64,000 nt of DNA from Candidatus Poseidoniales archaeon (GTDB lineage Archaea > Thermoplasmatota > Poseidoniia > Poseidoniales > Poseidoniaceae), in the NCBI GenBank assembly GCA_003602575.1, contig QQRY01000055.1:10395-74394 (forward strand), in the 5' to 3' direction. Position numbers and translations under genes: made by a program. Within the stretch, counting starts at the first letter, position 1. Each line of letters starts with the position of its first letter. Positions 24,433 to 60,195 of the stretch are shown here, piece after piece. Below the pieces are notes generated by a model. It was not told the origin of the DNA. It made no database searches and was given only the letters and a program-made list of their open reading frames with translations.

Positions 24433-24613
24433 GGTGGCACCATTCTTGTGGCAGCGCGTATCATGTTTGAGTGTTTGGTGTATCTAATTAGAAAACAACT
24501 GATTATATGACCTTCTTTAAGTGCTCAAGACAATGATTCGGCTTTCATATTTGAATGATATATTAACGCACGAATTAGGGCCGCGTTCAAATAGTGTAAG
24601 AAACGGCACAATA

Positions 24614-43179: not shown

Positions 43180-44139
43180 TTATACAGAATCAGTAAAATT
43201 AACTAATTCCTTTGCAATACCAACTTCTCCCATAGAATGTCCTGAGTCAGGGATTATACTTAGTTCACTATTTGGTAGAGCTTTATGTAATTCCCAAGCG
43301 CTTCTTGTAGGGCAAACCACATCATACCTCCCTTGAACAATAAATGTCGGAATGTGTTGGATTTTATCGACATTGTTCAAAATATGTGCTTCTTCGACAA
43401 AAATTGCATTGATGAAGTAATGACATTCAATCCTGGCAAAGGCAACTGCAAAGTCTAAATCTTCTGCCTTTTCTAAATATTCAGTATCGGGAATTAAGCG
43501 GCTAGTAGCCATTTCCCAGCGCGTCCACTCCTTAGCAGCAGCCCTTCTAATCTCTACATCTTCACTTGTCAAGCGACGATGGTATGCCTCGATTAGATTT
43601 TCTTGCTCTTGTTTAGGAATATGGCCTCTATAGGAATCAAAAGCATCAGGGAATATGTGGCTGGCTCCTTCTTGATAAAACCAATGAAGTTCACTTTTCC
43701 TACACATGAAAATTCCTCTAAGAATCAAACTTTGTGCTCTATCTGGATGGTTTTGAGCATAAATTAACGCTAATGTTGAGCCCCATGAACCACCAAATAC
43801 GTGCCAAGTATCGATTCCCAAAAATTCTCTTAAGGCTTCTATGTCCCCAACCGAACTATGAGTGTTGTTATCTTCTAATTCGGCATATGGTTTTGATTTC
43901 CCACACCCTCTTTGGTCGAATTGAATAATATCGAATTTTTCAGGATTAAAATATTGACGATAAGAGGGTTGACTACCTCCACCCGGTCCGCCGTGTATCA
44001 CTATCACAGGCTGCCCTTGTGGATTTCCGCATCGCTCCCATGCTATGGTGTGCAAGGGAGATACCTGTAGATTACCGGTTGAATGTGGTTCGATTTCAGG
44101 ATACAAAACGTCACTTAACGATGAAGACTGAGTGGACAT
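43180..44139 (-). CDS. pip: Proline iminopeptidase (prolyl aminopeptidase, alpha/beta hydrolase)
   Basis: Oxyanion-region HGGPGGG and nucleophile elbow GGSWGSTLAL. The C-terminal IPDSGHS carries the catalytic His. The 319-aa length is typical. Confidence 0.9.
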   Translation of the reverse strand: MSTQSSSLSDVLYPEIEPHSTGNLQVSPLHTIAWERCGNPQGQPVIVIHGGPGGGSQPSYRQYFNPEKFDIIQFDQRGCGKSKPYAELEDNNTHSSVGDIEALREFLGIDTWHVFGGSWGSTLALIYAQNHPDRAQSLILRGIFMCRKSELHWFYQEGASHIFPDAFDSYRGHIPKQEQENLIEAYHRRLTSEDVEIRRAAAKEWTRWEMATSRLIPDTEYLEKAEDLDFAVAFARIECHYFINAIFVEEAHILNNVDKIQHIPTFIVQGRYDVVCPTRSAWELHKALPNSELSIIPDSGHSMGEVGIAKELVNFTDSV

Positions 44140-44225
44140 ATTTGCCGGACATTGAGATATCCCTTGTTCCTTTCGATACTTGTATAATCACACGCTTTAT
44201 TGAATATCGACTCTCGCACAAGACC

Positions 44226-44849
44226 ATGGCGATTAGAAAAGCAACTGATGTCTTCCATGATTGGGCTTTGGCAGGAAAAGACAAAGGTATGGAAAAGGGA
44301 CATTCTAGTGCAGTTGGAGAGATGCTTGGTTTTATCTTCCAACATGTAGAGAAAAAACAAGAAAAGTTCTCTGCTATTGATGTAGGGTGTGGCAATGGAT
44401 GGGTTGTACGCTTATTGAAAGAACATCCTCTTTGTTCTTCTGCTGAAGGTATCGACGGTGCTGAGGCAATGATTGCGAAGGCTAAACAAATAGACATTGA
44501 AGGTGATTATTCAGTACGTCAATTACCGGAATATGCACCTTCAAAGCGTTATGACATCATACACTCGATGGAATTTCTATACTATCTTGAAGACCCCAAA
44601 TCAATGCTAAAGTTGTTTTACGATAATTGGGTTGCTAAAGACGGTTGGTTAGTTGTTGGAATAGATCATTATCTTGAACATGAAGAAAGTCTAAGCTGGC
44701 CAGAACATGTCGGAGTGCACATGACTACGTTAAGCAGACAAGAGTGGAAAGATGCTTGGCATGATGCCGGATTTACCAATATTTCTAGTTGGCAAGCCGG
44801 TGAAAAAGATTCAGTAACATTGGTTATTGCTGGACAAAAAGTGGACTAG
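44226..44849 (+). CDS. SAM-dependent methyltransferase (class I)
   Basis: Motif I AIDVGCGNGWVVRLL. The ATG at 44226 removes the ORF-track N-terminus that overlaps pip on the other strand. Confidence 0.75.
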   Translation: MAIRKATDVFHDWALAGKDKGMEKGHSSAVGEMLGFIFQHVEKKQEKFSAIDVGCGNGWVVRLLKEHPLCSSAEGIDGAEAMIAKAKQIDIEGDYSVRQLPEYAPSKRYDIIHSMEFLYYLEDPKSMLKLFYDNWVAKDGWLVVGIDHYLEHEESLSWPEHVGVHMTTLSRQEWKDAWHDAGFTNISSWQAGEKDSVTLVIAGQKVD

Positions 44850-47800
44850 TCTTCTGGGTCTTTTTTCGGCCCGCATAACTTGATATCCCCGCGATTAAAT
44901 GGACATTTCATACATGAAATCTTATCTGCACCTTGTAGCCTTTCAGGCTCTGGAACGGATTCTGGCTCAGCGGCTAATTGTGCAATCCAATCCAAATGAT
45001 TTTGCAAATCGTTCTTGGCATCTAGATACTGTTTTTCTGTTAACTCTACACTTCGACCAGAAGCCCCAATTAGTATCGATGGTGGTAGTATTTTACGTCT
45101 TTCTTCTACCGGTTTATCTGACTCTATTGCTTCTAAAGCCATTGAATAGAGTGTCAGTTGAAGTCTATGTTCATGAAGAATTTCTTTCTCTGCTTCGGTT
45201 TGAGGGTAAATATCCAATAAATCTCCTTTGACAATTTGAAGAGGAGCGCCTGCATTAGCATCTATTGGATTGAAGTTTGATCTACAATCGGTAGTTTTCA
45301 AATCTGAAATCTGTAAGTAGCCCTGTCCATCGGTGTCTCGGAATGCTAAAACCAAATCTGCTCGGCCATCAAATGAAATTTCTACTTGCCCAACATTTGC
45401 AATTTTACTTGGGCCATCTATAGTGAATCCCATACGATAAACGTCATTCATTTTTACTATATTTTGATAGAAAAATGGCAGTTCAGTCCTCAAACCTTCT
45501 GGTATTCTATTATGGTGCTTTTCACCTTGAGCATAGCGACCAATTAGACCTTTGTCAACTAATTTAGATAAATGTGTTAAGCGGTGTTTTAGTAATGATG
45601 TTCTTTTGTTCTCCCTACTAGTTCCTGAGTTGGTAAAGCCTTCTTCTAATAGTACTTCTTCTACAGTTTTTTCATCACCCAATCGATTGTCATTTTTATG
45701 TTTCCAACTCTCTGGAAGAGGTAATGTTGGTGGTGAATTTACTTGGGAGGGGTTCTTGAGGCCGACTTCTAATAGACGATGCATGATTGTACCAAATAAG
45801 GTCGGACTAGCAAACTTTTCACTGTCATCTCTAACAATATCATTGGTGTTTCTCAAGTAAAATGGTTCAGGGATCCATCCTTTAATTTCAGTAAGCCAAT
45901 GACGACGCGGACATTGGAAGGTAGAGTCAAGGCCGTGAGCACTCATCCTAATTCCGTGTTGTACAATCAAATTTGTACTATCTTTCGCTTCCATTATAGG
46001 GGGGTTTCCAATTAGTGCAGATGCTATTTTCTCGATATTCTTCCAACTATTCAATGGGGTTTGTTCAGAGATTGTATCGAAGCATTCAGGAGAATGATAA
46101 ATCCTAATCGATTCGATATTTTTTCCACCAAACATCGAGTTCTTGAACAGTGAGTAGGGATTTATGCTTACATTGGTCTCACTATAAGATTCTAAAGGCT
46201 TATTGAAATCATCATTTGGTAAAAGCCACGGCGAATCTTCGACTTTATTCTTGTAAGATAAGCTTCTTAGCCCATCCATCCACATTGCACCCATGGTTTT
46301 CATCGATGGTTTGCTCTTGAAAAATAGATTATTGGTTGATTCTTCCAGACTAGAGGTTGTATTGGGGCTACCGACCACAATTAATCGATCTTTCACCCTA
46401 GTCAATGCGACATAAAATTCTCTTCTTCTCTCGGCTTGTCTTTGTGCTCCATCCATATTCTTAGCAAATTCCCAAAGACCGTCGTATGGTCTATCACGTG
46501 ACGCCCAAGGGTTGATTCGCCCAGATACAATTTCGGGAGTTACTAGAACATTATTTCTTGCTGCTAAAGATGAGTCTGATTTACCTGCATGGAACATTCC
46601 TGCTACAACTACTACCTTAGATTGTAAACCTTTAGCGCCGTGTATTGTCATAATTCTTACAGCGCCACCCGAAGGGATTGTTATCGCTTGTGGGCCTTTA
46701 TTGCCCAAGCCTTGTAAGGATTTTAGATGTGAATAAATCTCAGTTGGCTCATGCCCATATTCGCTTCCAATATTGTAAACCAATCCGCACCATAATTCTG
46801 CATTTTGTCTCGATGTATCATCGGGATAGGCAATCAATAAATCTGAATGGTCCAATACTATGTCTAAAACCTGATGTAGTGCTCCTTTAGTAACCAAACT
46901 AGCAATATGCTTTACAAGAGTTTTAGAGCGCTTTGTAGGTGCATTCTCATGAAGTACAGGCCACCAATTATCAGCAGTATTTTTACTAGAGAATATATCG
47001 TGAATCTGCCCGTCGCTTAAGCCCAATATCGGTGAGCGTGCAAATGAAACCGCAGCAAATTTAGAACTAGGGTAAGCGACTAAGTGAAGAACTGCCATCA
47101 AGGTTCTAACTACGGGACGTTGTAGCAACTCGCCCTGTCTATCTGAAATAACTGGTATGCCTTTCAATTCCAGCCTCTGCAATAAATCCGGAATGTGTTT
47201 TCTGGAATGTACCAAAATTGTGATGTCTTTGGGTTGAATATTTGATGACTCGCAGTCGATTTCAGTAAATGAGGATGAGTTACTATCCCATAGTTTGGTA
47301 TTTCTATTGGCAAGGAGGCTATGAAGCCTTAAGGCGATTAATTCATGCTCTAGATGAATATTCTTAGCATTAGGATTAGCAAATACTGGACTGATTGAAT
47401 TTAAGTCAAGTGACGGAATCTTTGTCACGGTTTGAAGTGGAATTAACCATTCTAATACACCTAAATTTTGATCATCGCGTGCAGGTTTCAATTCTTGTGC
47501 TTCAGCGTGCCAATCACCCGGTAAAGTGTAGTGCCTACTATCAAAAACATCATCAAAAATTCCATTCATTGTACGCATCAGATTATGCAATGTTCGATGA
47601 TTTGATGTAAGATCAATATGGCCGTGGATTCTTCGATTTAATCTTTCAGGAGAAACTTGAACATAGGTCTTTTTGCCCTTAGGAGAATCTTCAAATTCTG
47701 CACAAACATGATCCCATGGTTTGGATTCTTGCTTCGGACCGGTTGATGAATGTTGATTGGAAAAAGAACCTATTTCACCTCCAGCGCCAACAGGTCTCGG

Positions 47801-49819
47801 ATCTCTCCCGTGATTTGCTTTGCGAAGATGCGCTAATCTTACTTCGGATTGTTCTATTTGGTTTATTGATTTTATGAACTCAACAGTTCTACGCATAACA
47901 GTTACTTCTGCTTGTCTAAAACGGTAGATACTCTGTTTCATATCTCCTACAATGCAAACTGTAGGATCCCATGGACCAAGAGGTCTTTCAGGGTCATCGC
48001 TAAGTTTTCCTCTGCGCCCCCAAAGTCTGGATAATAAACGGAAATGAGCGGGATTTGTATCTTGATATTCATCTATAATGAAAGCACAAAACCTTCTCCT
48101 CAGAGTTTGAAGAATCGAGAAGCGTTGTTGTAAATCTGCAAGGCATTTAGGATACTCTTGAGCCAAGGTCATAGCAGAAGAAATATGCAAATCTAGCCAT
48201 GGCTCCTCGTCTAGACTATCAAGTGCTTCTACAACTTTTTGGGGATATTCAAAGCGAACTGAATCTGGACATCTTGCCAACAGTAAATCGGCTGCTAAGC
48301 GCTGTACGTCATCAAAATCATGTACTCCTTCATTGACCTTTTTCAGAGTAATAATCTCTTGACAACCTCTGTGTACAATCAATAAATCTGCTAAAACTTT
48401 AGTCTGCTGCTTATCGGTTATTCGTAGTTTACCACTCGGAGCAATATCGGTTAACTCATCATCCAAAGGATGCGCGCGTAATGGGCAGTCATAATCCATG
48501 AAATTAAGATTAAACATAGGGCTGAATAAGAAAGAACTTCGTCCTAATAACCTGACTAAACGTCCATCTTGACTGCGAAGTAATTTATTCATCGACGCAC
48601 CGTGTTTTGCTAAATTAGATGCTACAGAGTCCTTCGTAGTTCCTGGAATACCTCTAACTTTACTCTTAGGGAAAAGACCTGGCATCCATTCATTACAATG
48701 GTTAGGTTGAGGTAAAACGCCTTTCGGGAAAAATGTCATCTCGTCTTTGATTAATGATGAATAAGATGCTGCAGCAAAAGACACCATCCAAACCCATTGT
48801 AACTTTTCTGCTTTGGAATTTGGATAAGTATGACGAACTAATTCCACAAGGTGATTGAAGCGAGTATTGCGGGTGCCTTGTTTAACTTCACAAGCGCCAA
48901 CAAATGCCGTAGAATGCAATAATGCCTCGTCAACCCACTTATTCAAATGTCCATGTAATTTATCTGCAAAAGAGTCGATGATTCCTTCCGCAGGCTCCAA
49001 TAACATTCCAGAAATGACCTCTGGATTTATCGGTTCTACGCCATCCCAGTTGAGTCCTCTTTGAGTAATTCTTTTCTTTATTGCGCGTTTTGATTCCTCC
49101 ACAAATAGTGAAGTGTTTAACATGCCCGTAAGTATGACTTCTGCTCTAGCTTGGCCGCCAACCAAGATTGCCAGTCTATTTCTTGCAGCAATAAATTCGC
49201 TGGTATCTCCTCTGACTCCAGCCTCTCTAGCATCGTTAGGCGTCCTTATTCTCCATGCGGAACGGATTGTTTCCTTGACCAACAGAGGTGAACGAACCTC
49301 AGATATCTGTTCTCTTGTTGGGTTGATTGCAACTATGTCTAAATGAGGAGATAATAACTGTGAAAGAAAAGCATCTATGGTTGAAATCGGAGCTTCGTCG
49401 AGTCCTGAAAGAAGCATCTCTAAATCGCCAGAGCGATGGATTCTTGGATCGAAAATTCCTTTTTCTCCATTAGCGACCGGCGTTGAACGGGTCAAAGCAA
49501 GTCTAGTTCTAATTCTTGATTTCAATTCTGCTGCAGCCTTCTTAGTAAATGTAATCGCAACTATCTCATTTGGTAATAGGCCTGGCCAACTCTTCAAATC
49601 AGTTCGCTCCCTAGCCGGTGCTCTTAATGCTCCATGCCCTTCCAATGGTTCTCTAGGACCGTTTGGAAGTAAAATTGTAGCCCGTTGCTCAGCAGAGATT
49701 AAATGTTGAACATAACGTTCCGCCATGACTGCTGTTTTACCCGTACCAGCACCTGCATCCAAAGCGATGTGTTTGTCCAAATCCAATCCAAGAATTTGGC
49801 TATTGTTGAATGGAATCAT
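44846..49819 (-). CDS. AddA-like UvrD/Rep (SF1) helicase fused to a C-terminal PD-(D/E)XK (RecB-type) nuclease, 1657 aa
   Basis: Helicase motifs are I DAGAGTGKT, Ia AITFTKKAAAELKSRI, II FIIDEYQDTN, III IVGDMKQSIYRFRQA, IV SNHRT, V TIHGAKGLQSKVVVV and VI FYVALTRVKDRLIVV. Nuclease motifs are GTIMHRLLE, GRADLV, ISDLKT and LQLTLYS. Cysteines flank the nuclease: FQCPRRHW and CMKCPFNRGDIKLC. Confidence 0.85.
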   Translation of the reverse strand: MIPFNNSQILGLDLDKHIALDAGAGTGKTAVMAERYVQHLISAEQRATILLPNGPREPLEGHGALRAPARERTDLKSWPGLLPNEIVAITFTKKAAAELKSRIRTRLALTRSTPVANGEKGIFDPRIHRSGDLEMLLSGLDEAPISTIDAFLSQLLSPHLDIVAINPTREQISEVRSPLLVKETIRSAWRIRTPNDAREAGVRGDTSEFIAARNRLAILVGGQARAEVILTGMLNTSLFVEESKRAIKKRITQRGLNWDGVEPINPEVISGMLLEPAEGIIDSFADKLHGHLNKWVDEALLHSTAFVGACEVKQGTRNTRFNHLVELVRHTYPNSKAEKLQWVWMVSFAAASYSSLIKDEMTFFPKGVLPQPNHCNEWMPGLFPKSKVRGIPGTTKDSVASNLAKHGASMNKLLRSQDGRLVRLLGRSSFLFSPMFNLNFMDYDCPLRAHPLDDELTDIAPSGKLRITDKQQTKVLADLLIVHRGCQEIITLKKVNEGVHDFDDVQRLAADLLLARCPDSVRFEYPQKVVEALDSLDEEPWLDLHISSAMTLAQEYPKCLADLQQRFSILQTLRRRFCAFIIDEYQDTNPAHFRLLSRLWGRRGKLSDDPERPLGPWDPTVCIVGDMKQSIYRFRQAEVTVMRRTVEFIKSINQIEQSEVRLAHLRKANHGRDPRPVGAGGEIGSFSNQHSSTGPKQESKPWDHVCAEFEDSPKGKKTYVQVSPERLNRRIHGHIDLTSNHRTLHNLMRTMNGIFDDVFDSRHYTLPGDWHAEAQELKPARDDQNLGVLEWLIPLQTVTKIPSLDLNSISPVFANPNAKNIHLEHELIALRLHSLLANRNTKLWDSNSSSFTEIDCESSNIQPKDITILVHSRKHIPDLLQRLELKGIPVISDRQGELLQRPVVRTLMAVLHLVAYPSSKFAAVSFARSPILGLSDGQIHDIFSSKNTADNWWPVLHENAPTKRSKTLVKHIASLVTKGALHQVLDIVLDHSDLLIAYPDDTSRQNAELWCGLVYNIGSEYGHEPTEIYSHLKSLQGLGNKGPQAITIPSGGAVRIMTIHGAKGLQSKVVVVAGMFHAGKSDSSLAARNNVLVTPEIVSGRINPWASRDRPYDGLWEFAKNMDGAQRQAERRREFYVALTRVKDRLIVVGSPNTTSSLEESTNNLFFKSKPSMKTMGAMWMDGLRSLSYKNKVEDSPWLLPNDDFNKPLESYSETNVSINPYSLFKNSMFGGKNIESIRIYHSPECFDTISEQTPLNSWKNIEKIASALIGNPPIMEAKDSTNLIVQHGIRMSAHGLDSTFQCPRRHWLTEIKGWIPEPFYLRNTNDIVRDDSEKFASPTLFGTIMHRLLEVGLKNPSQVNSPPTLPLPESWKHKNDNRLGDEKTVEEVLLEEGFTNSGTSRENKRTSLLKHRLTHLSKLVDKGLIGRYAQGEKHHNRIPEGLRTELPFFYQNIVKMNDVYRMGFTIDGPSKIANVGQVEISFDGRADLVLAFRDTDGQGYLQISDLKTTDCRSNFNPIDANAGAPLQIVKGDLLDIYPQTEAEKEILHEHRLQLTLYSMALEAIESDKPVEERRKILPPSILIGASGRSVELTEKQYLDAKNDLQNHLDWIAQLAAEPESVPEPERLQGADKISCMKCPFNRGDIKLCGPKKDPED

Positions 49820-52800
49820 TTCTCATCACCGCCTAATTCTGCAGATGGGCACATTACTCTAACAGAACAATAAGAGCATTGTTTACCAGGCATAGGTTGT
49901 GTAAAACCTGAATCAGCGTGCATAATTACTCTTGCGACAGTTCTTAATCTCTCATCCAGCCAATCTCTAAAACCATTTATAATTGATTTTTCAGTCAATT
50001 TTAATGGCCGATAATGAAGCGATGTATAGTATGTCTCAACCCCTAATTCGGCATTTGATAGATACTTCGACAAGGTGTGATCAAGTTCAACGTAATGTGT
50101 TGTAGTTTCTCCAATCTCACTTATCCCAACACCAACCACCCTATCCCCTGGATTGGAACTTTCCCATGCCTTTGCATAAAGTGCCAACTGAAGTTCATCA
50201 AAAATACCCCTTCTATGGCGATTTCCTTTATCTGATTCTTTAGGCCCTTCCAAGCTTTTGAGATCTCTAATGATGACCCATCTTTGGTGATTTGAATCTT
50301 CCTCGGATAGTACTCCATCCTTAATCGCTTCCTTTTTCATGTCCTCATCTAGTATAACACAGTCCACTCTATCTATACGTCCAAATAAATCGAAACTGAA
50401 TTTACTTCCATCATCGGATTGGACTTCTATGCTTAGACTTTTTTTACCCTTTTGTGATAGTTCCCATTCACAAGCGATGGGGGCACTGTTTTCTAATTCG
50501 AGATCTGCCTCTAGCATCCTTCCGATTCTCCCTGCTGGAACTAAATCAATTTCCCCGTTGAGATATTGAGACCACATTTCAGAATTTACTCCAAGCATAT
50601 CTCTACATCTATGGTATGCTACTGCATTAGAACGTGAAAGCCAAGATGCGTTTTCTTCAAGGTATTGTAAAGCAGTAATCCATAATTTATCAATATCATT
50701 TAATGGCCCTTGTGAAAGGGGTACTGGGGTATTAGAAGCCTCTCCAGCGATTTCTATTCCATGTTTTTCCAGTATCTCTGCTTCTATATCATGTACCAAT
50801 AAACCTCGAGTTCTATTGTCAATATCTTCCGTCGGCTGCTCTAACTGTGATGCCCCTAAGTGTTTAGAAAGCCACGCTTGTCGAGGACAAGATTGCCAAC
50901 TTTGTATTCTACTAGCAGACCAGACTTTACGTCCAATTTTTTGCCCGGTAGCACCTGTAATTGATTGTAATGCCTTACTCTTCGATTGAAACATAGGCAG
51001 TGGCCTTGGATCTATTGCTGGGCCATTACTTCTCGAACCTTTCATACCTAAATGCGGCCATATTTTACTCTTCTTTGAGCCTTCTTTTACTTGAGATTTT
51101 GTCGGCCTAAGAGTAAGATTGTCAACGCTTACAAGTGAATTTCTAGCACTCCACTCCAAATACTCATGTTTCTCGATATTCTTATGGCTAGGTTGTCTTT
51201 TCATTCGGTCGTTAAATATTGTAAATTCGTGAGCATAGGCCAAATTATTAATCGAGATTGGGGCGATTTCTGGCTTATCTCCATTTGATAATTTCAAGCC
51301 AGCTCTTTGCCTAAAATCGCGACCCCTAGAACCCGAACGATGCCCTACTGCGCCGTGTGCCCCCATGGACATTGAATACGGCCTAGGAGTCAACCATATC
51401 TCTTCTTTTTCTTCTTCTGAAGAACATAAATTCCATGGCCTATCCAGCCAGCCTTCCTGATATGATTCAATAGGTATGAAGGAGGGGATTTTGCTAAGTA
51501 GTTGATAAGTACCCATACGTTTCATTTCTTCAAAAAATTCTACTAAAGGCGCGCTTGGACCTGCTGATTCATCTAGGCTGCTATCTAGAATTACCACTTC
51601 TTGTCCAGCATTAATTAGATGTTTTAATTGGTGTCTGCCTCTACGTATTTCTTTATCGGAATTCAATATTCCGAGTTGTAATCTAGATTCGGAATCTAAC
51701 CATGGCGTCTTAGACGATTTCATAGACCATGAATCGACATCTAGGCCAGCTAAAATTATCAAATCACATTCCAATCCAAATGCTTCATTAGGATTTAATA
51801 TAGTTATATTTTTTGACTTGATTCGGGAATTGGTCAATTTTGTATTATCGGTAATTCTCATAATATGCTTGATAAAATCTTGACCGGTTTTCGGTACATT
51901 GAAATCTAATTCAATTAAAGAAGAAAATAATCTGTGGTGCTCTTCGTTCAAGGTTTGTAAAGCAGATATAGAATTTGAAAATGCAGCGTCTGATAGGGCC
52001 AATACATTCCAATCTATTGACCTAAAAATTAAATTTAGCCATTCTGTGCCATCCTTTATACTTTCAATAGTTGGTAATTTTACACCTGAAGAACATCCAA
52101 TAATAGGTGTATTTGATACACTCATGGCATCTTCATACAACGGCGACCACACCTTTACGATATTGGCAAACCACCACAGAGTTTCTTCTAATTTCCGACT
52201 CATAGTGTCTATGTCATCACCCAAAATTGGAGTAGCGCTTTCCAGGGTTTTAATCCAGCGAATTAATGCCCCGGGGCCGCCAAGAACATGGAAACTTCGT
52301 GAAATATTCTCAAGTACATCTAAGTGTGCTTTTGGTTTCCATTCCGTGTTTTTGGGATGAACTAGATTAGAAAAATTTTCAAAATTTAGTGGCAGTCCAT
52401 TATTCTCGATAATTCTACGAAATTTCTCAAATGACCATGCCTCAAGGCCTTCCCCAACTTGCAATAAATTAGTAAGGCCGGATATAGAAGGTTGCTCATG
52501 CATTTTTGGAGGGCCAAAATTGGTTACTATTCCAATTTCGTTAAGCCGGCTTGACCAAATACGACGATTTGAATCAACTGCAGCATCTATGATCAATATA
52601 TTCTTGTTGTTATGTTCAAGATATGATGCTACCAATTCTAATGTAGCATCAATATTGTGTTCTTTTCTTTCTAAGGAGACTCTATGGATGGTGGTTTTCT
52701 TATTTATTCCAACTGGAGAAACCCAATTGGTATTTTTTGGATAATTCCAGACCTCATGCTTTGGTAACCAAATAGGCAATGATTCTACATCTGTCCAATC

Positions 52801-53544
52801 TATATCCTCGACATAAGCTCCATGAAACCCTAATCGAAATGAGCCTGGATTGCATAATTGGTGTATTGGTGTAATCTTCGAGATAGAAATGAGCAATTCT
52901 CTATCCATTTCACTAAATTCTGGAGGGTGATTTAATACAATAATTCCTTCTATACTCTTTAGTGAAAACGGAATTTCTAAATTAGATATGGCTTCCTTAA
53001 TCCTGGTATGTAGATGAGTTTTCATTAGATCAGGATGAGTTTTTTTAGTTCTTTTCTCCATCTCTAATAGTAAATTTCTATACTCCTTCACTCCTGGGTC
53101 ATTGTCCCACTTCCAAGGTGATTTTATTTGGCTAAGTTCTCTATGTAATTGTTGTAATCTCTGGGTTTTATACTCAGACCATTGCTTATCCTTATATGGC
53201 GAAAACATCAATGGAAAATTACCCTTTTGCGCATGTTCCTGTACCATGTCATGAGTCAAAGAAAACAATAGTGCGTCTTGGTCCATCAAGTTTGGAAGTC
53301 GGAAATCAAGAAATAGTGCATTAAATAGACGTTCGATTGTCAAATGCTTGGATGTATCAATAGATGATTTGATCTGAGAAAGTTCACTTAATGTTGCTTT
53401 CCTTGCCCTCTCGCTTGGATGTAATATCAATAGATTTGTTGGCTCTTGTGATACTAAATCTCGATGTAGCCAATCAGGCATATTTTGTCCGCTTGGAGTT
53501 GCTTCAATGGAGATATTGTCGCTCAAAATATTACCATCAGACAT
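49816..53544 (-). CDS. AddB-like subunit with a degenerate helicase-like N-terminus lacking a Walker A and a C-terminal Cas4/AddB-type PD-(D/E)XK nuclease with 4-Cys motif, about 1242 aa
   Basis: Nuclease and iron-staple pattern: SWQSCPRQAW, LLVHDIEAE, GRIDRVD, IRDLKS, LQLALYAKAW and CSYCSVRVMC (C-x2-C-x5-C). No GxGKT is present anywhere in the protein. The ORF-track start at 53583 is GTG. The ATG at 53544 is preceded by GGAGGTGAG. Its stop overlaps the AddA-like start (ATGA). Confidence 0.8.
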   Translation of the reverse strand: MSDGNILSDNISIEATPSGQNMPDWLHRDLVSQEPTNLLILHPSERARKATLSELSQIKSSIDTSKHLTIERLFNALFLDFRLPNLMDQDALLFSLTHDMVQEHAQKGNFPLMFSPYKDKQWSEYKTQRLQQLHRELSQIKSPWKWDNDPGVKEYRNLLLEMEKRTKKTHPDLMKTHLHTRIKEAISNLEIPFSLKSIEGIIVLNHPPEFSEMDRELLISISKITPIHQLCNPGSFRLGFHGAYVEDIDWTDVESLPIWLPKHEVWNYPKNTNWVSPVGINKKTTIHRVSLERKEHNIDATLELVASYLEHNNKNILIIDAAVDSNRRIWSSRLNEIGIVTNFGPPKMHEQPSISGLTNLLQVGEGLEAWSFEKFRRIIENNGLPLNFENFSNLVHPKNTEWKPKAHLDVLENISRSFHVLGGPGALIRWIKTLESATPILGDDIDTMSRKLEETLWWFANIVKVWSPLYEDAMSVSNTPIIGCSSGVKLPTIESIKDGTEWLNLIFRSIDWNVLALSDAAFSNSISALQTLNEEHHRLFSSLIELDFNVPKTGQDFIKHIMRITDNTKLTNSRIKSKNITILNPNEAFGLECDLIILAGLDVDSWSMKSSKTPWLDSESRLQLGILNSDKEIRRGRHQLKHLINAGQEVVILDSSLDESAGPSAPLVEFFEEMKRMGTYQLLSKIPSFIPIESYQEGWLDRPWNLCSSEEEKEEIWLTPRPYSMSMGAHGAVGHRSGSRGRDFRQRAGLKLSNGDKPEIAPISINNLAYAHEFTIFNDRMKRQPSHKNIEKHEYLEWSARNSLVSVDNLTLRPTKSQVKEGSKKSKIWPHLGMKGSRSNGPAIDPRPLPMFQSKSKALQSITGATGQKIGRKVWSASRIQSWQSCPRQAWLSKHLGASQLEQPTEDIDNRTRGLLVHDIEAEILEKHGIEIAGEASNTPVPLSQGPLNDIDKLWITALQYLEENASWLSRSNAVAYHRCRDMLGVNSEMWSQYLNGEIDLVPAGRIGRMLEADLELENSAPIACEWELSQKGKKSLSIEVQSDDGSKFSFDLFGRIDRVDCVILDEDMKKEAIKDGVLSEEDSNHQRWVIIRDLKSLEGPKESDKGNRHRRGIFDELQLALYAKAWESSNPGDRVVGVGISEIGETTTHYVELDHTLSKYLSNAELGVETYYTSLHYRPLKLTEKSIINGFRDWLDERLRTVARVIMHADSGFTQPMPGKQCSYCSVRVMCPSAELGGDEK

Positions 53545-53860
53545 TAACTCACCTCCCTCGACTATTGATACAGATGCCGACACTTATTGAAGGCTTTTCT
53601 AAATAACATCGATAATCTAAATCATGTTGTTATTCTTTATATATTGTCGAATTTGATGATGTTCATGAACTCCAATAAGAATCATTCATGTTTGGGATTA
53701 TTATGGGATTTTATACCAAAGTTTTATCAACTTGGTCGAACACATATTAACTCCTGCGCTGGCAAAGGCTCCTACATACCGCATTTATTACAACGTACTT
53801 TCGTTGCGGTTTGGCAAAGAGTAGGCTTGTCGTCGTATAACAAGATTGAGGCATGATAGT
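53545..53860. promoter_or_regulatory. Largest intergenic region in the window, a divergent promoter region between the addB-like and TFB-like genes
   Basis: AT-rich sequence with TATA-like elements TTTATATATT (53636-53645) and TATAA (53836-53840). The second lies about 23 nt upstream of the ATG at 53861, implying a leaderless or near-leaderless mRNA. An imperfect nested hairpin ACCG..CAACG-TACTTT-CGTTG-CGGT lies at about 53777-53810. Confidence 0.4.
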
Positions 53861-54979
53861 ATGGAAAATAATAAGAAAACAACAAGAAAAGAAGATAAAT
53901 GCGATAATTGTGGATGTTTAGATTGGGATTATGATTCTAAACTGGGTGAGAAAGCATGCTCCAGTTGTGGGCTAGTAGACTCAGACTATTCCCCGATAGA
54001 AGGCGTATCAGATAGCATTACCCAAGGTGCAGAACGACAAACTGAACGTGTTAGTCGTGGCAGTAAACCCGGTACAAGCGGTGCTAGAATTTTGCCTGGC
54101 GACCTAAGAGGTGTCAAGAATCCTGGATTCTGGAAATATGAGAAAAGAAAATATGATTCTTTTAGAGAAAAGCACCCTTTCTGCAAGAAGGTTCACGCTT
54201 TAATCGAAGCACGCTATGGTAAGAATGTAAGAGATGTCGTTTATGACATCACTGAAATGGCTTGCACTCCACTTACGCCCGAGCAGGAAAAGGAACGTTC
54301 GCAATTGGATGACAAGGGAATCAAGAAAGCATTGTCGATGCCTAAGCAAGTCATATGTCGCCAGAAAAAAGGCATCAAAGGTGAAAGTGAGCATCAGAAT
54401 GCCGTAATTATTGCTGCTGCAATTGTCGAGTTAGCAGGAGAGTTAGGTATCTTGACTAAATTCGATAGAAGGCGTGCTCTGAAAAATGATGGTGTGACTG
54501 CTAAACAAATTGCTAAAGCAAGAATTATTGTCCTTAACCATTGGAAAGCTAGGTCTAGAATGGGTTGGTTTTTGCAACCGATACCTAGGAAGAGCCCTGG
54601 CGAGAAGAGGTATGATGACATTTCTCAAGCAATGACTCACGCTGACCAACTACTATTGGAATTCTTGCCCGAACAAGTAGTCGACCAAGTATTGCAAGAT
54701 GTGAACGCTAGAGTACTGGCGTTGGGTGAAGGTGAGAGCGGCGCTACTACCATTAATTCAGAGGCAAAGATGCTTATTGCCACTTTAACATATGCTAGCC
54801 TTACTATGCTTGACTGTGAGAAGGGATTATTGGCAAAGATCGCCAAATGCCTGGATGCAACAGGTAGTGGCGTTAGTTCCAGCCTGAAAAACTTCCAGAT
54901 GAAAGTCAAGAATGGAACTCTAGTAGATAATGGTGCATTTGATACTGATGCAGACTGGTATGATGATGAAGATGAATGA
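53861..54979 (+). CDS. Divergent TFB/TFIIB-like protein with an N-terminal zinc ribbon, two cyclin-like helical repeats and an acidic tail
   Basis: CDNCGCLDWDYDSKLGEKACSSCGLV fits the TFB ribbon (C-x2-C-x15-C-x2-C with GE.vC..CGlV). NAVIIAAAIVELAGELGILTKF...VTAKQIAKARIIV resembles a cyclin-repeat helix pattern. The protein ends in DADWYDDEDE. The ORF-track start at 53846 is TTG. Confidence 0.6.
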   Translation: MENNKKTTRKEDKCDNCGCLDWDYDSKLGEKACSSCGLVDSDYSPIEGVSDSITQGAERQTERVSRGSKPGTSGARILPGDLRGVKNPGFWKYEKRKYDSFREKHPFCKKVHALIEARYGKNVRDVVYDITEMACTPLTPEQEKERSQLDDKGIKKALSMPKQVICRQKKGIKGESEHQNAVIIAAAIVELAGELGILTKFDRRRALKNDGVTAKQIAKARIIVLNHWKARSRMGWFLQPIPRKSPGEKRYDDISQAMTHADQLLLEFLPEQVVDQVLQDVNARVLALGEGESGATTINSEAKMLIATLTYASLTMLDCEKGLLAKIAKCLDATGSGVSSSLKNFQMKVKNGTLVDNGAFDTDADWYDDEDE

Positions 54980-55021: not shown

Positions 55022-55915
55022 ATGCGCCGTGTTGTAATTGTTTGTTGCCTGCTAGTATTGATCAGTTTCACCGGTACAAGCGGAGTTTCTGCTAAGGCGC
55101 CTGAAGATACCGGCACAGGGCCATTATTTGGTGGACAATGGGCATGGACGAATGATACAAGTTCACAAACCACAACTCTAGATTCACTCCCCTCCATTGC
55201 GGAAGACTATACTGCCACGTGGTGTACTAATTGCGTAAAGGTAGAACACGTTCTAGAAGACTTGGAGAATAATGGAGAGATTAAGAAGTATCATTTCCAT
55301 CGTGCTAACGACCATGAAGACCCATTTGGCTCTGATAATACGGAACAACATTTCGATAGCAGGTATAACGCAGGCGCTCCTCCAATTGTTGTATTCAACG
55401 GAACTCAGAAGCAAATAGGGAGTACTGCTAACGGAGATTCATTAGAAGATGACTATCGCTCTTTAATCGGTCAGTCTTTGAACCTAGGCAGTGGAAATAC
55501 CACACTGTCATGGTCTTCACAAGATGGTGATACAGGTGTTGTTTCTTGGTCCGCTGATCTAAATATGGCACAATTCGAAGAATATGAGATGAGTGTTAAT
55601 GTGTGGTTTGTAGAAGCCTCGGCTGAATTCACAGAAGGATCAAACGGTGAAGAAATATACCCCAGTATTGTGACAAAAATTGTTGAAGTTGGCAATAAAT
55701 CAAGCGGAACTGCGACCGTCAGTATTCCTAATTCTTATGATGGAGATGATATGCAAGTCCACCTAATGTACCACTTTACTCCAATTGAAACTAGTCAAGA
55801 TACAGTCATTGAGGACACAAGTGAAGATAGCGATTCTAGTAGCCTTCCATCTATTTCGGCGGTAATCAGTTTGTCTTGTATTATCGCTGCTGCAATATTC
55901 AAGTGGGATAATTAA
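55022..55915 (+). CDS. Secreted, C-terminally anchored thioredoxin-like protein
   Basis: The ATG at 55022 begins MRRVVIVCCLLVLISFTGTSGVSAKA, a signal peptide. TATWCTNCVKVEHVL contains a WCxxC motif. The C-terminal TM helix is ISAVISLSCIIAAAIF. The ORF-track start at 54980 is TTG. Confidence 0.6.
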   Translation: MRRVVIVCCLLVLISFTGTSGVSAKAPEDTGTGPLFGGQWAWTNDTSSQTTTLDSLPSIAEDYTATWCTNCVKVEHVLEDLENNGEIKKYHFHRANDHEDPFGSDNTEQHFDSRYNAGAPPIVVFNGTQKQIGSTANGDSLEDDYRSLIGQSLNLGSGNTTLSWSSQDGDTGVVSWSADLNMAQFEEYEMSVNVWFVEASAEFTEGSNGEEIYPSIVTKIVEVGNKSSGTATVSIPNSYDGDDMQVHLMYHFTPIETSQDTVIEDTSEDSDSSSLPSISAVISLSCIIAAAIFKWDN

Positions 55916-58272
55916 GTCCAATTTATAGGTCTAAGTTCATCACTAAGATCTTCTTCAAGTTGCCATCTAAACTCCGGGATTTCGCAAGGCGGCTCGATTA
56001 CATCTGCAAAATGCCACCACCAAGGAGGAGCACCCCGTGCACCCAATAAGCGCTGAAAATTCGATAAAGTCTGAGTTAGCATACGGCGGTTGCGTGGACT
56101 CGGATGATCTCTACGGTAGTAAATTTGAGACCTCTCTAATTGATCCCCATCATCTTCATGATAACCAAGTATTGACAAGAATCTTTTGAGTAAATTTATT
56201 TCGCGGTTATCTCTTAAAGTTACTTTTAATTGGCAATATTGGAATGAAATCTCTTTGCCTACGACTGTTGGTAGCACTACTTGAGAGCCTATTGGATGCA
56301 ACATCAAAGCTTCCCAGATACGAGGCATGACCTCACAATATCTTCGTTCACCGTTTCTAACATCTCCAATTGGGTATTCTTGTTCTGGACGTCCATAGTT
56401 ACGTAAGTACATCCAATCCCTACGTCCACGAAACTGATTCCAATACTGTGCAAAAAGTCCTTGTGAAGACGGGTTTTCTTGGTGAGGGGAGAAATTATCT
56501 TTCCAAACTTTAACCATTTTTTCTATTGATGGCGTTTTATTTCCTTGTTCTAAATCGTTATTGATGACATCTCTAGCCTTGTCGGTTTTTGCACTATCTT
56601 TCTGAGCTTGTTCTCCAAGTTCAACAAAATATCTATTCCTGCGCATGATGAAATTAAATTGTTGACGGACCCTTTCTTCGGCTGCAAATCCTTGCTCCTC
56701 AATTCGCGCCCATTCCTTCTCACCTCGAGAAAGCCACTTTGGAAAACCAGATGCGGTTCTAGAGATTGAAGTTGTGAAATCATCTAATGATTCCTTATTG
56801 ATTAATTCTGTATATTCTGGTGAAAGCAATTCGGGGAAGCCCAGTGGTTGATTGTCAATTAGTTCACTACGTAAACTATCAACCTTTTCGCTTGTAGTAA
56901 CATCATCGATTAAAGAGAGTACGACAGATGCGATTATATCGCCTAATGGCATATTTGAATGGAATCTTCCGCTATGGATACATATCGATTGGGTTTTCCG
57001 TGGATTTAGTGATTTAATATGTCTAATTATGTATGGCGCTCCATGAGCGCCCTCTCCAACTTTGACCTCATAGAAATGGCCTAATCTACCGATAACCAAA
57101 ATTGTATCTTGTTCAATGAAAACTTGACTTGGACTTCCTGATATCACTTCATTGAGCAGTTGTATTGAACGGCGGAGTGGTGGCTCGATTTTGACTAATG
57201 CATCTTGTTGATGTGTCCAATTATATTGAATCGCGTAAAGTAGATGCCCGTTCAGAGAAGAAGAAGGGGAGAATGATAATGAGATAAGAGACGCCCATAT
57301 AGCCGGTTTATCTGGAATTATAGCCAATCTAGTACCATTTGATTTTGTTCGCACCAAAAGTCTTAGATTCATTCCGAAAATTTTCAGTGGCCACTTTGAA
57401 GGAATGTTATATGTTGATGGGCATCGATATTCTTGCCAATGTTCAATCCAGGGATAATCAGCGAGTTCGCTCAATCCGCTAGGGTGATTAAGAAAGGCTG
57501 CATTAACTGTTTCATGGAAAATAGGTCCACCAATATTAGTGACGTTTGTCCTAAGGTCTCTAGCCCATGCCGATAATGGATGAATCCGATAATTTTCAGG
57601 TGGCGAGATATTCTCTTCAGCCATCCATTCAATCCATGATAGTGTGGCCATTAACGAGTCTCTATCTACGTGCCTACGTCTTTGCCTCCGCCTAAAATGA
57701 AAACGATCCCGTGGTGTTAATTCTGTTGATATTTGTGTCGAACCAAGGGAGATTATCATTTTGTTGATATCCCACCCAATGCGCTCTTTCTTATCAAAAA
57801 GCATCCTTACTAGTGAAGCAACAGGAACGTCGTTTGGTAATTCGCGACCATTAATAATGGCTTTAGATGATAAGAATGACAAGTGCACGTCATCGATCAT
57901 TGTAAAGCCTTGATGTAAGATTGACCTATCCTCTGAAGTTAGTCTGGCACCATTCTCCAAGTCATAGCAAATTTGCAGCCCCTTCTTCGCACTACATGGA
58001 AATGTCAAAACGGGGTCTATGTTTTCATCCAATTTAGCCCAATCTGCTAGTTTAGCATCTTGTGCCGAAGATTGAAAACACTCCCATCTTTTCTTACTAG
58101 ATTTGTCTCCGCCACCAATGAATTCCAATGCTTTCTCTAATGCCTCGGGGTGAATATCTTTGCCCCACTTCTTATTCTTTGATTGCTTAGTCATTGAATC
58201 GCATAATGCGCACAAGCCTCCTTTGGAGGCTTTTGACTCACATGTTTGACATTTTGCACCCTTGTTAGCCAT
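55912..58272 (-). CDS. Large orphan protein (786 aa) with an N-terminal zinc ribbon and an Arg-rich patch
   Basis: The ATG at 58272 follows GGAGAG; the ORF-track start at 58308 is TTG. The ribbon is CQTCESKASKGGLCALC (C-x2-C-x9-C-x2-C). An Arg-rich patch reads RFHFRRRQRRRHVDRD. I recognise no other motifs. The long uninterrupted ORF has no competing frame above 80 aa. Confidence 0.6.
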   Translation of the reverse strand: MANKGAKCQTCESKASKGGLCALCDSMTKQSKNKKWGKDIHPEALEKALEFIGGGDKSSKKRWECFQSSAQDAKLADWAKLDENIDPVLTFPCSAKKGLQICYDLENGARLTSEDRSILHQGFTMIDDVHLSFLSSKAIINGRELPNDVPVASLVRMLFDKKERIGWDINKMIISLGSTQISTELTPRDRFHFRRRQRRRHVDRDSLMATLSWIEWMAEENISPPENYRIHPLSAWARDLRTNVTNIGGPIFHETVNAAFLNHPSGLSELADYPWIEHWQEYRCPSTYNIPSKWPLKIFGMNLRLLVRTKSNGTRLAIIPDKPAIWASLISLSFSPSSSLNGHLLYAIQYNWTHQQDALVKIEPPLRRSIQLLNEVISGSPSQVFIEQDTILVIGRLGHFYEVKVGEGAHGAPYIIRHIKSLNPRKTQSICIHSGRFHSNMPLGDIIASVVLSLIDDVTTSEKVDSLRSELIDNQPLGFPELLSPEYTELINKESLDDFTTSISRTASGFPKWLSRGEKEWARIEEQGFAAEERVRQQFNFIMRRNRYFVELGEQAQKDSAKTDKARDVINNDLEQGNKTPSIEKMVKVWKDNFSPHQENPSSQGLFAQYWNQFRGRRDWMYLRNYGRPEQEYPIGDVRNGERRYCEVMPRIWEALMLHPIGSQVVLPTVVGKEISFQYCQLKVTLRDNREINLLKRFLSILGYHEDDGDQLERSQIYYRRDHPSPRNRRMLTQTLSNFQRLLGARGAPPWWWHFADVIEPPCEIPEFRWQLEEDLSDELRPINWT

Positions 58273-58320
58273 CCCTATCTCTCCGATAATTCGGCGAGAG
58301 TATTTCAATAAATGATAGAA

Positions 58321-59404: not shown

Positions 59405-59746
59405 TCACAGTAATTTTAAGTCGTCAGTAATTTTTGATAATACTGATTCTATATCGGGGCCCAGTGCTAAAACGGTCAAAGATCCACTTGGGATTTGTGT
59501 ATGGCCTGCATCGTGAATTTTAGTAGATAATATTCCTTCGCTTGATGCTAGCTTTTCTAATGCCAATAAATTGTCTGCATCAATGCCTTTTACACAAATT
59601 TTCTTCTGCCCTGATGCAAGCCATGATTCTAGTAAATCCGGCGCTTCTTTCCCGCATTTTAAGGTTGAAGAAACTGCTGCGTGACCGACTTGGGCAGCAA
59701 TTTTACCTTTACCCATTTTTAAATTGGTATTTACTACCAAAACCAT
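59405..59746 (-). CDS. pth: Peptidyl-tRNA hydrolase, archaeal/eukaryotic Pth2 type (copy B)
   Basis: MVLVVNTNLKMGKGKIAAQVGHAAV...IHDAGHTQIPSGSLTVLALGP. I prefer the ATG at 59746, giving a 113-aa product of typical Pth2 length. The ORF-track TTG start at 59857 would add 37 unconserved residues. Confidence 0.85.
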   Translation of the reverse strand: MVLVVNTNLKMGKGKIAAQVGHAAVSSTLKCGKEAPDLLESWLASGQKKICVKGIDADNLLALEKLASSEGILSTKIHDAGHTQIPSGSLTVLALGPDIESVLSKITDDLKLL

Positions 59747-59853
59747 TTTCACTTCTTGGTCAATTACATTTCGATGTCTAAATGGCGGCGCCGTTAGACT
59801 ATGTATGAATGAACGTAGACCCATTGCGCTTCGTTCACAGCACTGGCTCTTAC

Positions 59854-60195
59854 TCAATAAGGCTTCAAGTCTTGAACCAAAGCATCGATGCTTCTTCTAG
59901 GCCCTGGGCCTATTCCGAGTACCGTTATTGTCCCTGCCGGTATTTCAGTATGGCCTGCATCCTTCACAATATGCGTAATCAGATTTGCCGACTGTGCTTG
60001 GCCTGCTAAAATTTGAAGTGAGGGTAAGTCTTCTACTTGTAAGCATATTTTCCTTGCACCACTATTTTTCCACCTTTCCAGTAGTCGCTTCTCAGATTTA
60101 ATAGCGACAAGTGTACAACTAGTAGCTGCATGAGCACATTGAACTGCTAGCTTACCTGCAGATAATTTCAAATCTTTACGTGCGATTAAGACCAT
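59854..60195 (-). CDS. pth: Peptidyl-tRNA hydrolase, Pth2 type (copy A)
   Basis: MVLIARKDLKLSAGKLAVQCAHAA...VKDAGHTEIPAGTITVLGIGPGP. The ATG at 60195 also gives a 113-aa product. The longer ORF-track start at 60231 overlaps the upstream membrane-protein gene. Confidence 0.85.
   Translation of the reverse strand: MVLIARKDLKLSAGKLAVQCAHAATSCTLVAIKSEKRLLERWKNSGARKICLQVEDLPSLQILAGQAQSANLITHIVKDAGHTEIPAGTITVLGIGPGPRRSIDALVQDLKPY

Follow-up and report, generated by a model that had tools for sequence, protein, structure and literature searches.

The closest described relatives of the system considered here are the AddAB helicase-nuclease of Bacillus subtilis (RexAB; PDB 3U44 and 4CEH-4CEJ) and the AdnAB heterodimer of mycobacteria. 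B. subtilis AddAB is encoded by an operon in which addB precedes addA. AddA carries the one active motor, a UvrD-like helicase of superfamily 1A (SF1A), with a RecB-type nuclease at its C-terminus, and its partner combines a non-motor helicase-like N-terminus with a C-terminal nuclease that is flanked by one upstream and three downstream cysteines, hereafter the 1+3 layout, described for both AddB and Dna2 (PMC3378879). Iron-sulfur (Fe-S) clusters have been described for AddB and Dna2 (PMC3378879), for AdnA (PMC13000450) and also for Cas4 proteins; characterised AddAB has its Fe-S domain in AddB only (PMC3378879) and AdnAB has its cluster described in AdnA only (PMC13000450). Here we compare with these systems a pair of large genes found in a stretch of 64,000 nucleotides, hereafter the window, of contig QQRY01000055.1 from a Candidatus Poseidoniales archaeon. 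The pair is, in our judgement, very probably an AddAB-type helicase-nuclease with a single motor and two nucleases that forms part of the core genome, inherited vertically, in Poseidoniales and related marine archaea.

The two long open reading frames (ORFs) lie head-to-tail on the minus strand and overlap by ATGA, which joins the TGA stop of the AddB-like gene to the ATG start of the AddA-like gene, indicating translational coupling. A preliminary description of this DNA had proposed such coupled genes; both ORFs and the overlap were confirmed, and every motif it quoted could be located in the translations. The features of the locus are as follows (aa, amino acids; AF2, AlphaFold 2).

49816-53583, minus strand: AddB-like gene, 1255 aa from a GTG start; inactivated SF1-helicase-like N-terminal region and C-terminal PD-(D/E)XK nuclease
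50884-53541, minus strand: N-terminal helicase-like region of the AddB-like protein, residues 15-900 (regular-expression search, AF2 and Foldseek)
49819-50940, minus strand: nuclease domain of the AddB-like protein, iron-staple layout (motif positions; conservation)
49816-49819, minus strand: stop/start overlap ATGA (sequence; kept on contigs L001, L003, L004 and L005)
44846-49819, minus strand: AddA-like gene, 1657 aa from an ATG start; active-looking SF1A UvrD-type helicase and C-terminal nuclease (Pfam, NCBIfam, PDB profile match)
46360-49819, minus strand: helicase core of the AddA-like protein, residues ~1-1153 (motifs I, Ia, II, III, V, VI)
44849-46102, minus strand: linker and nuclease domain of the AddA-like protein, residues 1240-1657 (motifs, AF2 model, Cys conservation)

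The first ~23 residues of the AddB-like ORF are conserved in close relatives only, and the true start may therefore be M14 (position 53544), which would give a protein of 1242 aa.

Architecture of the two subunits and comparison with known systems

The upstream protein had been held to lack a Walker A motif, and regular-expression searches over its whole 1255 aa indeed returned neither [AG]x4GK[ST] nor any GK[ST]; the motif was likewise not found in four AddB-like orthologues from other contigs. Its only Pfam match is PDDEXK_1 (residues 888-1246, E 5.6e-16), within which the motifs SWQSCPRQAW (starting at residue 895), GRIDRVD (1068), IRDLKS (1105), LQLALY (1131) and CSYCSVRVMC (1236) are found, with the nuclease residues D1071 (in GRIDRVD), D1107-x-K1109 and Q1132/Y1136. 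Among NCBIfam models the protein shows a weak match to addB_alphas.

The downstream protein contains the helicase motifs I (GAGTGKT, residue 23), II (DEYQD, within DEYQDTN at 583), III (GDMKQSIYRFRQA, 625), V (TIHGAKGLQ, 1058) and VI (VALTRVKDRL, 1137), together with motif Ia and the element TFTKKAA (90). Its nuclease part displays FQCPRRHW (1301), GTIMHRLLE (1343), GRADLV (1485), ISDLKT (1504), LQLTLYS (1553) and CMKCPFNRGDIKLC (1636), with the nuclease residues D1488 (in GRADLV), D1506-x-K1508 and Q1554/Y1558. Pfam recognises UvrD-helicase (9e-32), UvrD_C (5e-16) and PDDEXK_1 (7.6e-10), while the NCBIfam ranking is headed by addA_Gpos, followed by recB and addA_alphas. A profile built from 27 diverse homologues, among which the helicase motifs are invariant, finds in the PDB B. 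subtilis AddA as its best match (3u44_A, E 1.9e-32), with an alignment that spans helicase domains 2A/2B. The catalytic aspartate of GRxDxV, the DxK pair and QLxLY are invariant across homologues in the nucleases of both subunits. With helicase motifs invariant in the AddA-like protein only and nuclease motifs intact in both, the pair has the single-motor, dual-nuclease layout of AddAB.

The AddA-like protein is also longer than the Bacillus enzyme, as stated in the preliminary description: with its 1657 aa it exceeds the B. subtilis AddA chain of the PDB (1232 aa) by ~425 aa. The HMMER alignment with 3u44_A shows that ~34 aa are inserted between motif I and motif Ia, ~137 aa in the 1B region and ~71 aa after motif III, and the linker and nuclease part has ~160 extra aa. 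An AF2 model of residues 1240-1657 (mean predicted local distance difference test, pLDDT, 90.9) has as its best structural matches in the PDB AdnA, at the top, and AddA, AddB, ACE1 (Cas4 family), Dna2 and RecB.

The assignment to the AddAB type has to be weighed against the large distance of both proteins from the reference models. The AddA-like protein reaches 165.7 bits with addA_Gpos, which has a curated cut-off of 707.65 (the cut-offs of the listed families lie at 700-860 bits), and the AddB-like protein 39.6 bits against a curated AddB cut-off of 486.5; moreover, sequence searches of the PDB with the latter gave no AddB match (none at all with the single sequence, a marginal Cas4 match only with a profile). 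Because of this last result the structure of the AddB-like protein was predicted. The AF2 model of residues 15-900, computed from an alignment of 123 sequences, has a pLDDT of 88.9 and a predicted template modelling score of 0.81, and the top five Foldseek matches in the PDB are the AddB chains of B. subtilis AddAB structures (E 1.3e-14 to 1.1e-12, ~770 aligned columns), with UvrD/PcrA/Rep, AdnB/AdnA and RecC ranking below them. This makes the upstream protein an AddB-like subunit, in which a motor-less helicase fold is followed by a nuclease, and its N-terminal region would, by analogy, be a non-motor, DNA-scanning domain. Since both subunits score below the equivalog thresholds (TIGR02785/TIGR02784 and TIGR02773/TIGR02786), the pair is placed in the broad AddAB type and in no curated subfamily. 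The nearest models are those of AddA for the downstream protein and of AddB/Cas4-type nucleases for the upstream one, at scores far below the curated limits. With these predicted models, we consider the assignment well supported for architecture and fold. The claim of an operon with AddB-then-AddA order in an archaeal chromosome holds.

B. subtilis AddAB, which shares with the archaeal pair the gene order, the single SF1A motor with its C-terminal nuclease and the non-motor partner with a 1+3 nuclease, is the best PDB match by sequence for the AddA-like and by structure for the AddB-like protein. The archaeal enzyme differs in the greater length of the AddA-like subunit, in the four-cysteine bracket that the nuclease of this subunit has of its own, in the complete absence of a Walker A from the AddB-like subunit and in its host, an archaeon using RadA. 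Mycobacterial AdnAB is similarly a heterodimer of two helicase-like/nuclease subunits with a single productive motor, an organisation that the archaeal pair would have by analogy. In AdnAB an Fe-S subdomain is positioned at the fork and belongs to the nuclease of the subunit that is not the motor (PMC13000450), and the archaeal counterpart is predicted from the cysteines; as noted above, AdnA is the top structural match of the AddA-like nuclease model. However, the cluster is described for AdnA only whereas the archaeal pair has Cys brackets on both subunits, the motor-like domain of AdnA still binds nucleotide (PMC13000450) whereas the AddB-like protein has no P-loop, and sequence similarity is limited to the helicase motifs.

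RecBCD, composed of RecB, RecC with an inactive nuclease-like domain and the SF1B motor RecD, does not match the pair: the nuclease motifs of the archaeal partner are intact, RecC ranks below AddB in structure comparison, and neither the window nor contigs L001-L005 have a third helicase gene next to the two. A further type to be considered is that of the UvrD-Cas4-like fusions (pfam12705 branch), found in bacteria and mesophilic archaea either stand-alone or in restriction-modification and Dcm/Vsr defence contexts (PMC5704561, Hudaiberdiev et al. 2017). They also join a UvrD-type SF1 helicase to a Cas4-like pfam12705 nuclease, but the archaeal gene is always coupled to an AddB-like partner, in housekeeping synteny. 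One metagenomic protein of 2097 aa (P0372), with the C-terminal end CEYCDFDRICRKDC, seems to unite an AddA-like helicase-nuclease and an AddB-like protein in a single chain.

Cysteine brackets around both nucleases

The conservation of the cysteines flanking the two nucleases was counted in representatives of 90%-identity clusters, 110 for the AddB-like and 121 for the AddA-like protein (120 of them full-length). The AddB-like bracket consists of C899 and the group C1236-x2-C1239-x5-C1245, and is canonical in 101 of the 110 representatives. In eight sequences of one clade the last Cys is replaced by Ser and another is gained upstream (CxxCxxC), so that 109 of 110 keep the set once this compensated clade is included; the remaining representative is a truncated sequence. 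The AddA-like bracket is formed by C1303, in FQCPRRHW, and C1636-x2-C1639-x9-C1649, and 93 of the 121 representatives show it in canonical form. Eight further members, forming one clade, have C-x7/8-C-x2-C with an upstream Cys gained and the last one lost, and in two sequences the loss of the N-terminal Cys goes with a total of four at the C-terminus (C-x2-C-x2-C-x7-C). Overall, 103 of the 120 full-length AddA-like representatives keep four cysteines, ten of these by compensatory relocation. The bracket is retained among members at 31-46% identity, in nearly all of the most divergent ones. The claim in the preliminary description that the AddA-like nuclease is bracketed, too, hence stands: the feature is real, conserved and absent from characterised AddA and AdnB motor subunits.

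The exceptions form two groups. In three AddA-like sequences all or nearly all bracket cysteines are gone, with none or one left. The other group, a clade of proteins of ~1610 aa, comprises 14 representatives in which the N-terminal Cys lies in a His-rich CRHHHW and the protein ends early with a single Cys (...EHAMxCWN):

L001:10001-14839, for example: AddA-like gene of the ~1610-aa two-Cys clade (members P0039, P0062-66, P0078, P0082-84, P0087, P0089, P0101 and P0105)

The AddB-like partner of this clade has its four cysteines intact. These AddA-like proteins may have another kind of metal site or may have lost the cluster. The AddA-side bracket itself is ancestral to the family and lost in the two clades.

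Because relocation maintains the count at four in two independent clades, and in both subunits, each set of cysteines can be read as a four-ligand metal site; such count-preserving relocation is the strongest argument available for a site of this kind on each subunit. By analogy with AddB, AdnA, Cas4 and Dna2, each nuclease domain is most likely stapled by an Fe-S cluster bound to its four flanking cysteines, and the AddA-side bracket is probably a second Fe-S site. If so, most members would have two clusters per enzyme instead of one.

Four additional cysteines of the AddA-like protein that lie outside the bracket, C517, C622, C1246 and C1512, are invariant or nearly so among 121 homologues, and one of these directly follows the catalytic DLKT motif (DLKTTGC).

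As to the origin of the second bracket, recent duplication of the nuclease domains was considered and rejected, since the hhalign comparison of the AddA-like with the AddB-like domain is collinear but weak (E 0.003, probability 10%). A hidden Markov model (HMM) of the AddA-like nuclease domain gave no significant match anywhere among the fetched outgroups, and so no lead to the origin of the AddA-side bracket. Most of the non-family AddA-like representatives that were fetched (~35 full-length) have no C-terminal Cys cluster. Four do, and two of these belong to 'short' AddB-AddA operons with 1+3 cysteines on both subunits:

L086:3610-9495: 'short' operon, AddB-like protein of 900 aa and AddA-like protein of 1058 aa
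L088:5373-11204: 'short' operon, AddB-like protein of 875 aa and AddA-like protein of 1067 aa

Each subunit encoded by these operons has one Cys upstream of the nuclease and CxxCx5C downstream, and these proteins, too, score below the curated AddA and AddB cut-offs. They differ from the archaeal pair in being much shorter, with the AddA-like protein sharing only ~88 bits with its counterpart in the window, in the helicase core; the profile of the archaeal AddA-like nuclease domain has no significant match in them, and only that of the archaeal AddB-like nuclease finds, weakly (25-30 bits), their AddB-like proteins. Gene context suggests that the metagenomic source of both operons is bacterial. 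Since L086 and L088 carry the 1+3 layout on both subunits, the double bracket occurs outside the archaea as well. It is neither universal in the family nor unique to it, and in sequence terms a motor subunit with a stapled nuclease has precedents, the UvrD-Cas4-like fusions included. The earlier suggestion of a new double-iron-staple variant may accordingly be kept for the bracket on both subunits, but not as an exclusive property of archaea. To our knowledge, no AddAB operon with two brackets has been characterised.

Family boundary, history and alternative explanations

Word-indexed searches recovered hundreds of full-length homologues of each protein, with identities of 46-100% for the AddA-like and 31-95% for the AddB-like query. 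Their named hosts are Poseidoniales, Poseidoniaceae or Thermoplasmatota metagenome-assembled genomes (MAGs), and the proteins are listed under unspecific labels such as 'UvrD-helicase domain-containing', 'PD-(D/E)XK nuclease family', 'hypothetical' and 'exoDNase V beta'. The preliminary description had stated that its novelty would fall away if homologues were ubiquitous in this lineage and already annotated as AddAB; the first part of this applies, the second does not. When one genome per GTDB species was scanned with the AddB-like query, relatives were found in 382 species genomes, including the assembled 2.06-Mb chromosome record of MG-II (CM001443.1); the best 80 of the 382 are Poseidoniales or MAGs generically labelled 'Methanobacteriota' or 'Euryarchaeota'. 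The archaeal operon is also present on a contig (L055, NZEQ01000040.1) from a MAG labelled 'Verrucomicrobiales bacterium', a label that is probably a binning error.

The boundary of the family is sharp. An exhaustive search with AddA-like residues 458-1657 against 1.84 billion cluster representatives delimits a discrete group of proteins of 1500-1716 aa that extends down to 31-34% identity with scores of at least 335 bits over the full length; the AddB-like members have ~1160-1300 aa. Beyond it, scores drop to ~108 bits, where the next relatives are UvrD-helicase/nuclease proteins from haloarchaea (1250-1300 aa) and AddA-like proteins from bacteria (~1100 aa). The former (e.g., WP_117369112 from Natrarchaeobaculum) are archaeal AddA-like proteins as well and constitute the top non-family relatives, but they are shorter, have no Cys bracket and score 292 bits with bacterial AddA models, above the window protein. 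For the AddB-like subunit, the outgroup profile search returned no sequence between 995 bits and a gammaproteobacterial AddB-like protein at 39 bits, a gap in which the word prefilter may hide intermediates.

Gene order and the 4-nucleotide overlap are kept on L001, L003, L004 and L005 (ATGA, with TTGA in L005), where the operon has as syntenic neighbours genes for PTH2, a beta-eliminating lyase, phosphatidylserine decarboxylase, a radical S-adenosylmethionine (SAM) protein and a YGR210 GTPase. This synteny holds across orthologues at 31-49% identity, and neighbours are partly shared on the contigs of the most divergent members, which are archaeal and of which one is 3.0 Mb long and has a GC content of 71%. 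Within the window, the GC content, the GC content of third codon positions (GC3) and the codon usage of the operon are indistinguishable from those of its flanks, and its tetranucleotide composition correlates with that of the remainder of the window at r = 0.962, compared with a sliding-window mean of 0.949 ± 0.026. Composition, synteny and spread together indicate that the operon has long been part of the core genome of this archaeal class, passed on by vertical descent and not imported recently.

A recent acquisition from bacteria on a mobile island, by contrast, appears extremely improbable to us. One could invoke for it that AddAB is otherwise a bacterial system, that haloarchaea have separate AddA-like proteins and that transfer of AddAB into archaea has been proposed before (Cromie 2009, as cited in PMC2887965). 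However, besides the typical tetranucleotide, GC3 and codon usage of the operon, which contradict the expectation of a foreign signature, the pair persists with conserved synteny in hosts with GC contents from 0.41 to 0.71, and neither subunit has a close bacterial donor, as seen in the drop from at least 335 to 108 bits on the AddA side and in the gap from 995 to 39 bits on the AddB side. Of the earlier proposal of horizontal acquisition there thus remains, at most, a very ancient event, recent transfer being contradicted by composition, by synteny at 31-49% identity and by occurrence in 382 genomes. Ancient transfer before the radiation of the lineage is possible; judging from the sequences, an origin in bacteria, if there was one, would predate that radiation, with no close donor left in the databases. 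A second alternative is that the pair serves mainly in defence, degrading linear foreign (viral) DNA as RecBCD and AddAB do with Chi-less DNA, or as UvrD-Cas4-type fusions might. RecBCD and AddAB destroy unprotected linear DNA, and the AddA-like helicase shows partial matches to GajB-type (UvrD helicase) models of PADLOC. UvrD-Cas4-like fusions, furthermore, are linked to type III restriction-modification and Dcm/Vsr contexts (PMC5704561). Yet the PADLOC matches are of the generic UvrD-core kind (at most 67 bits), with otherwise only marginal Cas4 matches, no specific defence system and no defence-system partner, and the operon keeps its housekeeping neighbours in synteny even between genomes that are very divergent, whereas defence islands vary. 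Stable synteny and the lack of a specific match in the PADLOC models argue against a dedicated defence island, as does the presence of the pair in 382 species genomes with vertical-looking divergence. The defence function put forward in the preliminary description accordingly found no support in gene context or PADLOC. We regard defence as the main role as unlikely, bearing in mind that defence and repair are not mutually exclusive.

The remaining alternative bears on the cysteines and not on the assignment of the enzyme: the AddA-side set could be a structural zinc site or a lineage-specific relic, leaving an ordinary one-cluster AddAB with extra cysteines. Two observations speak in this direction and weaken the case for two clusters. 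The full set is missing in 17 of the 120 full-length AddA-like representatives, namely in the clade of ~14 with one N-terminal and one C-terminal Cys and in the three sequences with none or one, the protein being otherwise intact, which suggests that the second cluster is dispensable in some clades; and the C-terminal cysteines, spaced C-x2-C-x9-C, do not have the C-x2-C-x5-C arrangement seen in the AddB-like protein of the window. To this may be added that zinc or another metal could fill such a site in place of an Fe-S cluster. However, compensatory relocation holds the count at four in two independent clades, the nuclease is flanked by cysteines in the same 1+3 manner as in AddB and Dna2 (PMC3378879), the bracket is retained in members down to 31% identity, and the top structural matches of the AddA-like nuclease model are in their majority nucleases described as Fe-S carriers (AdnA, AddB, the ACE1/Cas4 family and Dna2). 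A zinc site or relic is, in our estimation, the less probable explanation, although one to be taken seriously, and we retain a second Fe-S site as the probable one.

The genes surrounding the operon are for the most part of housekeeping type. The window encodes RadA (Rad51 and HHH_5 domains, 6393-7430), FtsZ, PTH2 (59405-59857) and a GatE-like protein, as well as phosphatidylserine decarboxylase, a proline-iminopeptidase-like hydrolase and a SAM-dependent methyltransferase. The archaeal context stated in the preliminary description is borne out by RadA, PTH2 and the GatE-like gene, with FtsZ in addition, but not by its 'TFB-like' neighbour (53846-54979, plus strand), which has no Pfam match at E<=1e-3 and of which an N-terminal CxxC...CxxC ribbon is the only visible feature. 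Directly upstream of the operon in L001, L004 and L005 there is a gene of ~290-350 aa without Pfam matches, on the opposite strand in L001 and L004. The methyltransferase gene (Methyltransf_23; 44019-44849, plus strand) is convergent with the AddA-like gene, with which it shares 4 nucleotides at the 3' end; this arrangement is kept in L001 and L003, and a peptidase M20 gene is found instead in the most divergent L004 and L005. Elsewhere in the window, an ORF of 2801 aa (24521-32926, plus strand), with a weak fibronectin type III match as its sole match and a 220-aa antisense ORF overlapping its start, probably encodes a giant surface protein. A protein of 725 aa (37639-39816, minus strand) combines EF-hand calcium-binding motifs with a C-terminal SAP/Rho_N-like DNA-binding motif, which is unusual for an archaeon; an EF-hand gene of similar kind is present in the L003 neighbourhood. 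Two large ORFs on the minus strand, of 1147 aa (11754-15197) and 798 aa (55912-58308), have no Pfam match, and the start of the 798-aa product is rich in cysteines in CxxC motifs.

Proposed function and significance

The most likely role of the AddAB-type pair, by analogy, is that of an end-resection enzyme feeding RadA. The mechanism that we propose follows B. subtilis AddAB and mycobacterial AdnAB, from which its heterodimeric state, strand polarity and Chi-like control are all taken. The AddA-like/AddB-like heterodimer would bind a double-strand DNA end, and the SF1A motor of the AddA-like subunit would pull the 3' strand in the 3' to 5' direction through the complex and into its own nuclease. 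The 3' strand would be cut there, while the displaced 5' strand would be cut by the nuclease of the AddB-like subunit, and the dead helicase-like domain of the latter would scan the 3' strand, perhaps in search of a Chi-like sequence. RadA, the archaeal recombinase, whose gene lies in the same window, would then receive a 3' single-stranded tail. The putative clusters may stabilise the nuclease domains and help to hold or split the DNA end, roles that have been shown for AddB (PMC3378879) and AdnA (PMC13000450).

A bolder version of this proposal, which we offer tentatively and consider open to doubt, is that Poseidoniales and their relatives have in an anciently resident AddAB of bacterial type with two Fe-S clusters their principal break-resection enzyme, which would provide 3' tails to RadA, might replace HerA-NurA and might respond to a Chi-like signal specific to the lineage. 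In that case the cluster on the motor subunit, the second one, would be functional, for instance in strand splitting or in redox sensing in sunlit, oxidising surface water, and dispensable only where it has been lost.

Marine Group II (MGII) archaea are among the most abundant planktonic archaea, with no cultured representative reported in the MGII literature searched. In this literature we found no paper that links MGII or Poseidoniales to AddAB or describes the Poseidoniales operon, and one major MGII genome survey makes no mention of repair, helicases or nucleases; the DNA-repair biology of the group is essentially undescribed. The AddAB type of machine is itself already known, and what is new here is a very divergent, lineage-wide and unstudied variant of it. 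Consistent annotation now becomes feasible for genes named 'hypothetical', 'UvrD-helicase domain' or 'PD-(D/E)XK nuclease family'. Orthologues with two clusters, a rearranged cluster or one cluster, as predicted from their cysteines, offer together with the bacterial two-bracket operons a natural series for dissecting the iron staple. Finally, the occurrence throughout a lineage of an AddAB-type enzyme, with RadA encoded in the same window, bears on how bacterial-style resection may be coupled to a recombinase of archaeal/eukaryotic type, and on whether HerA-NurA is universal in archaea.

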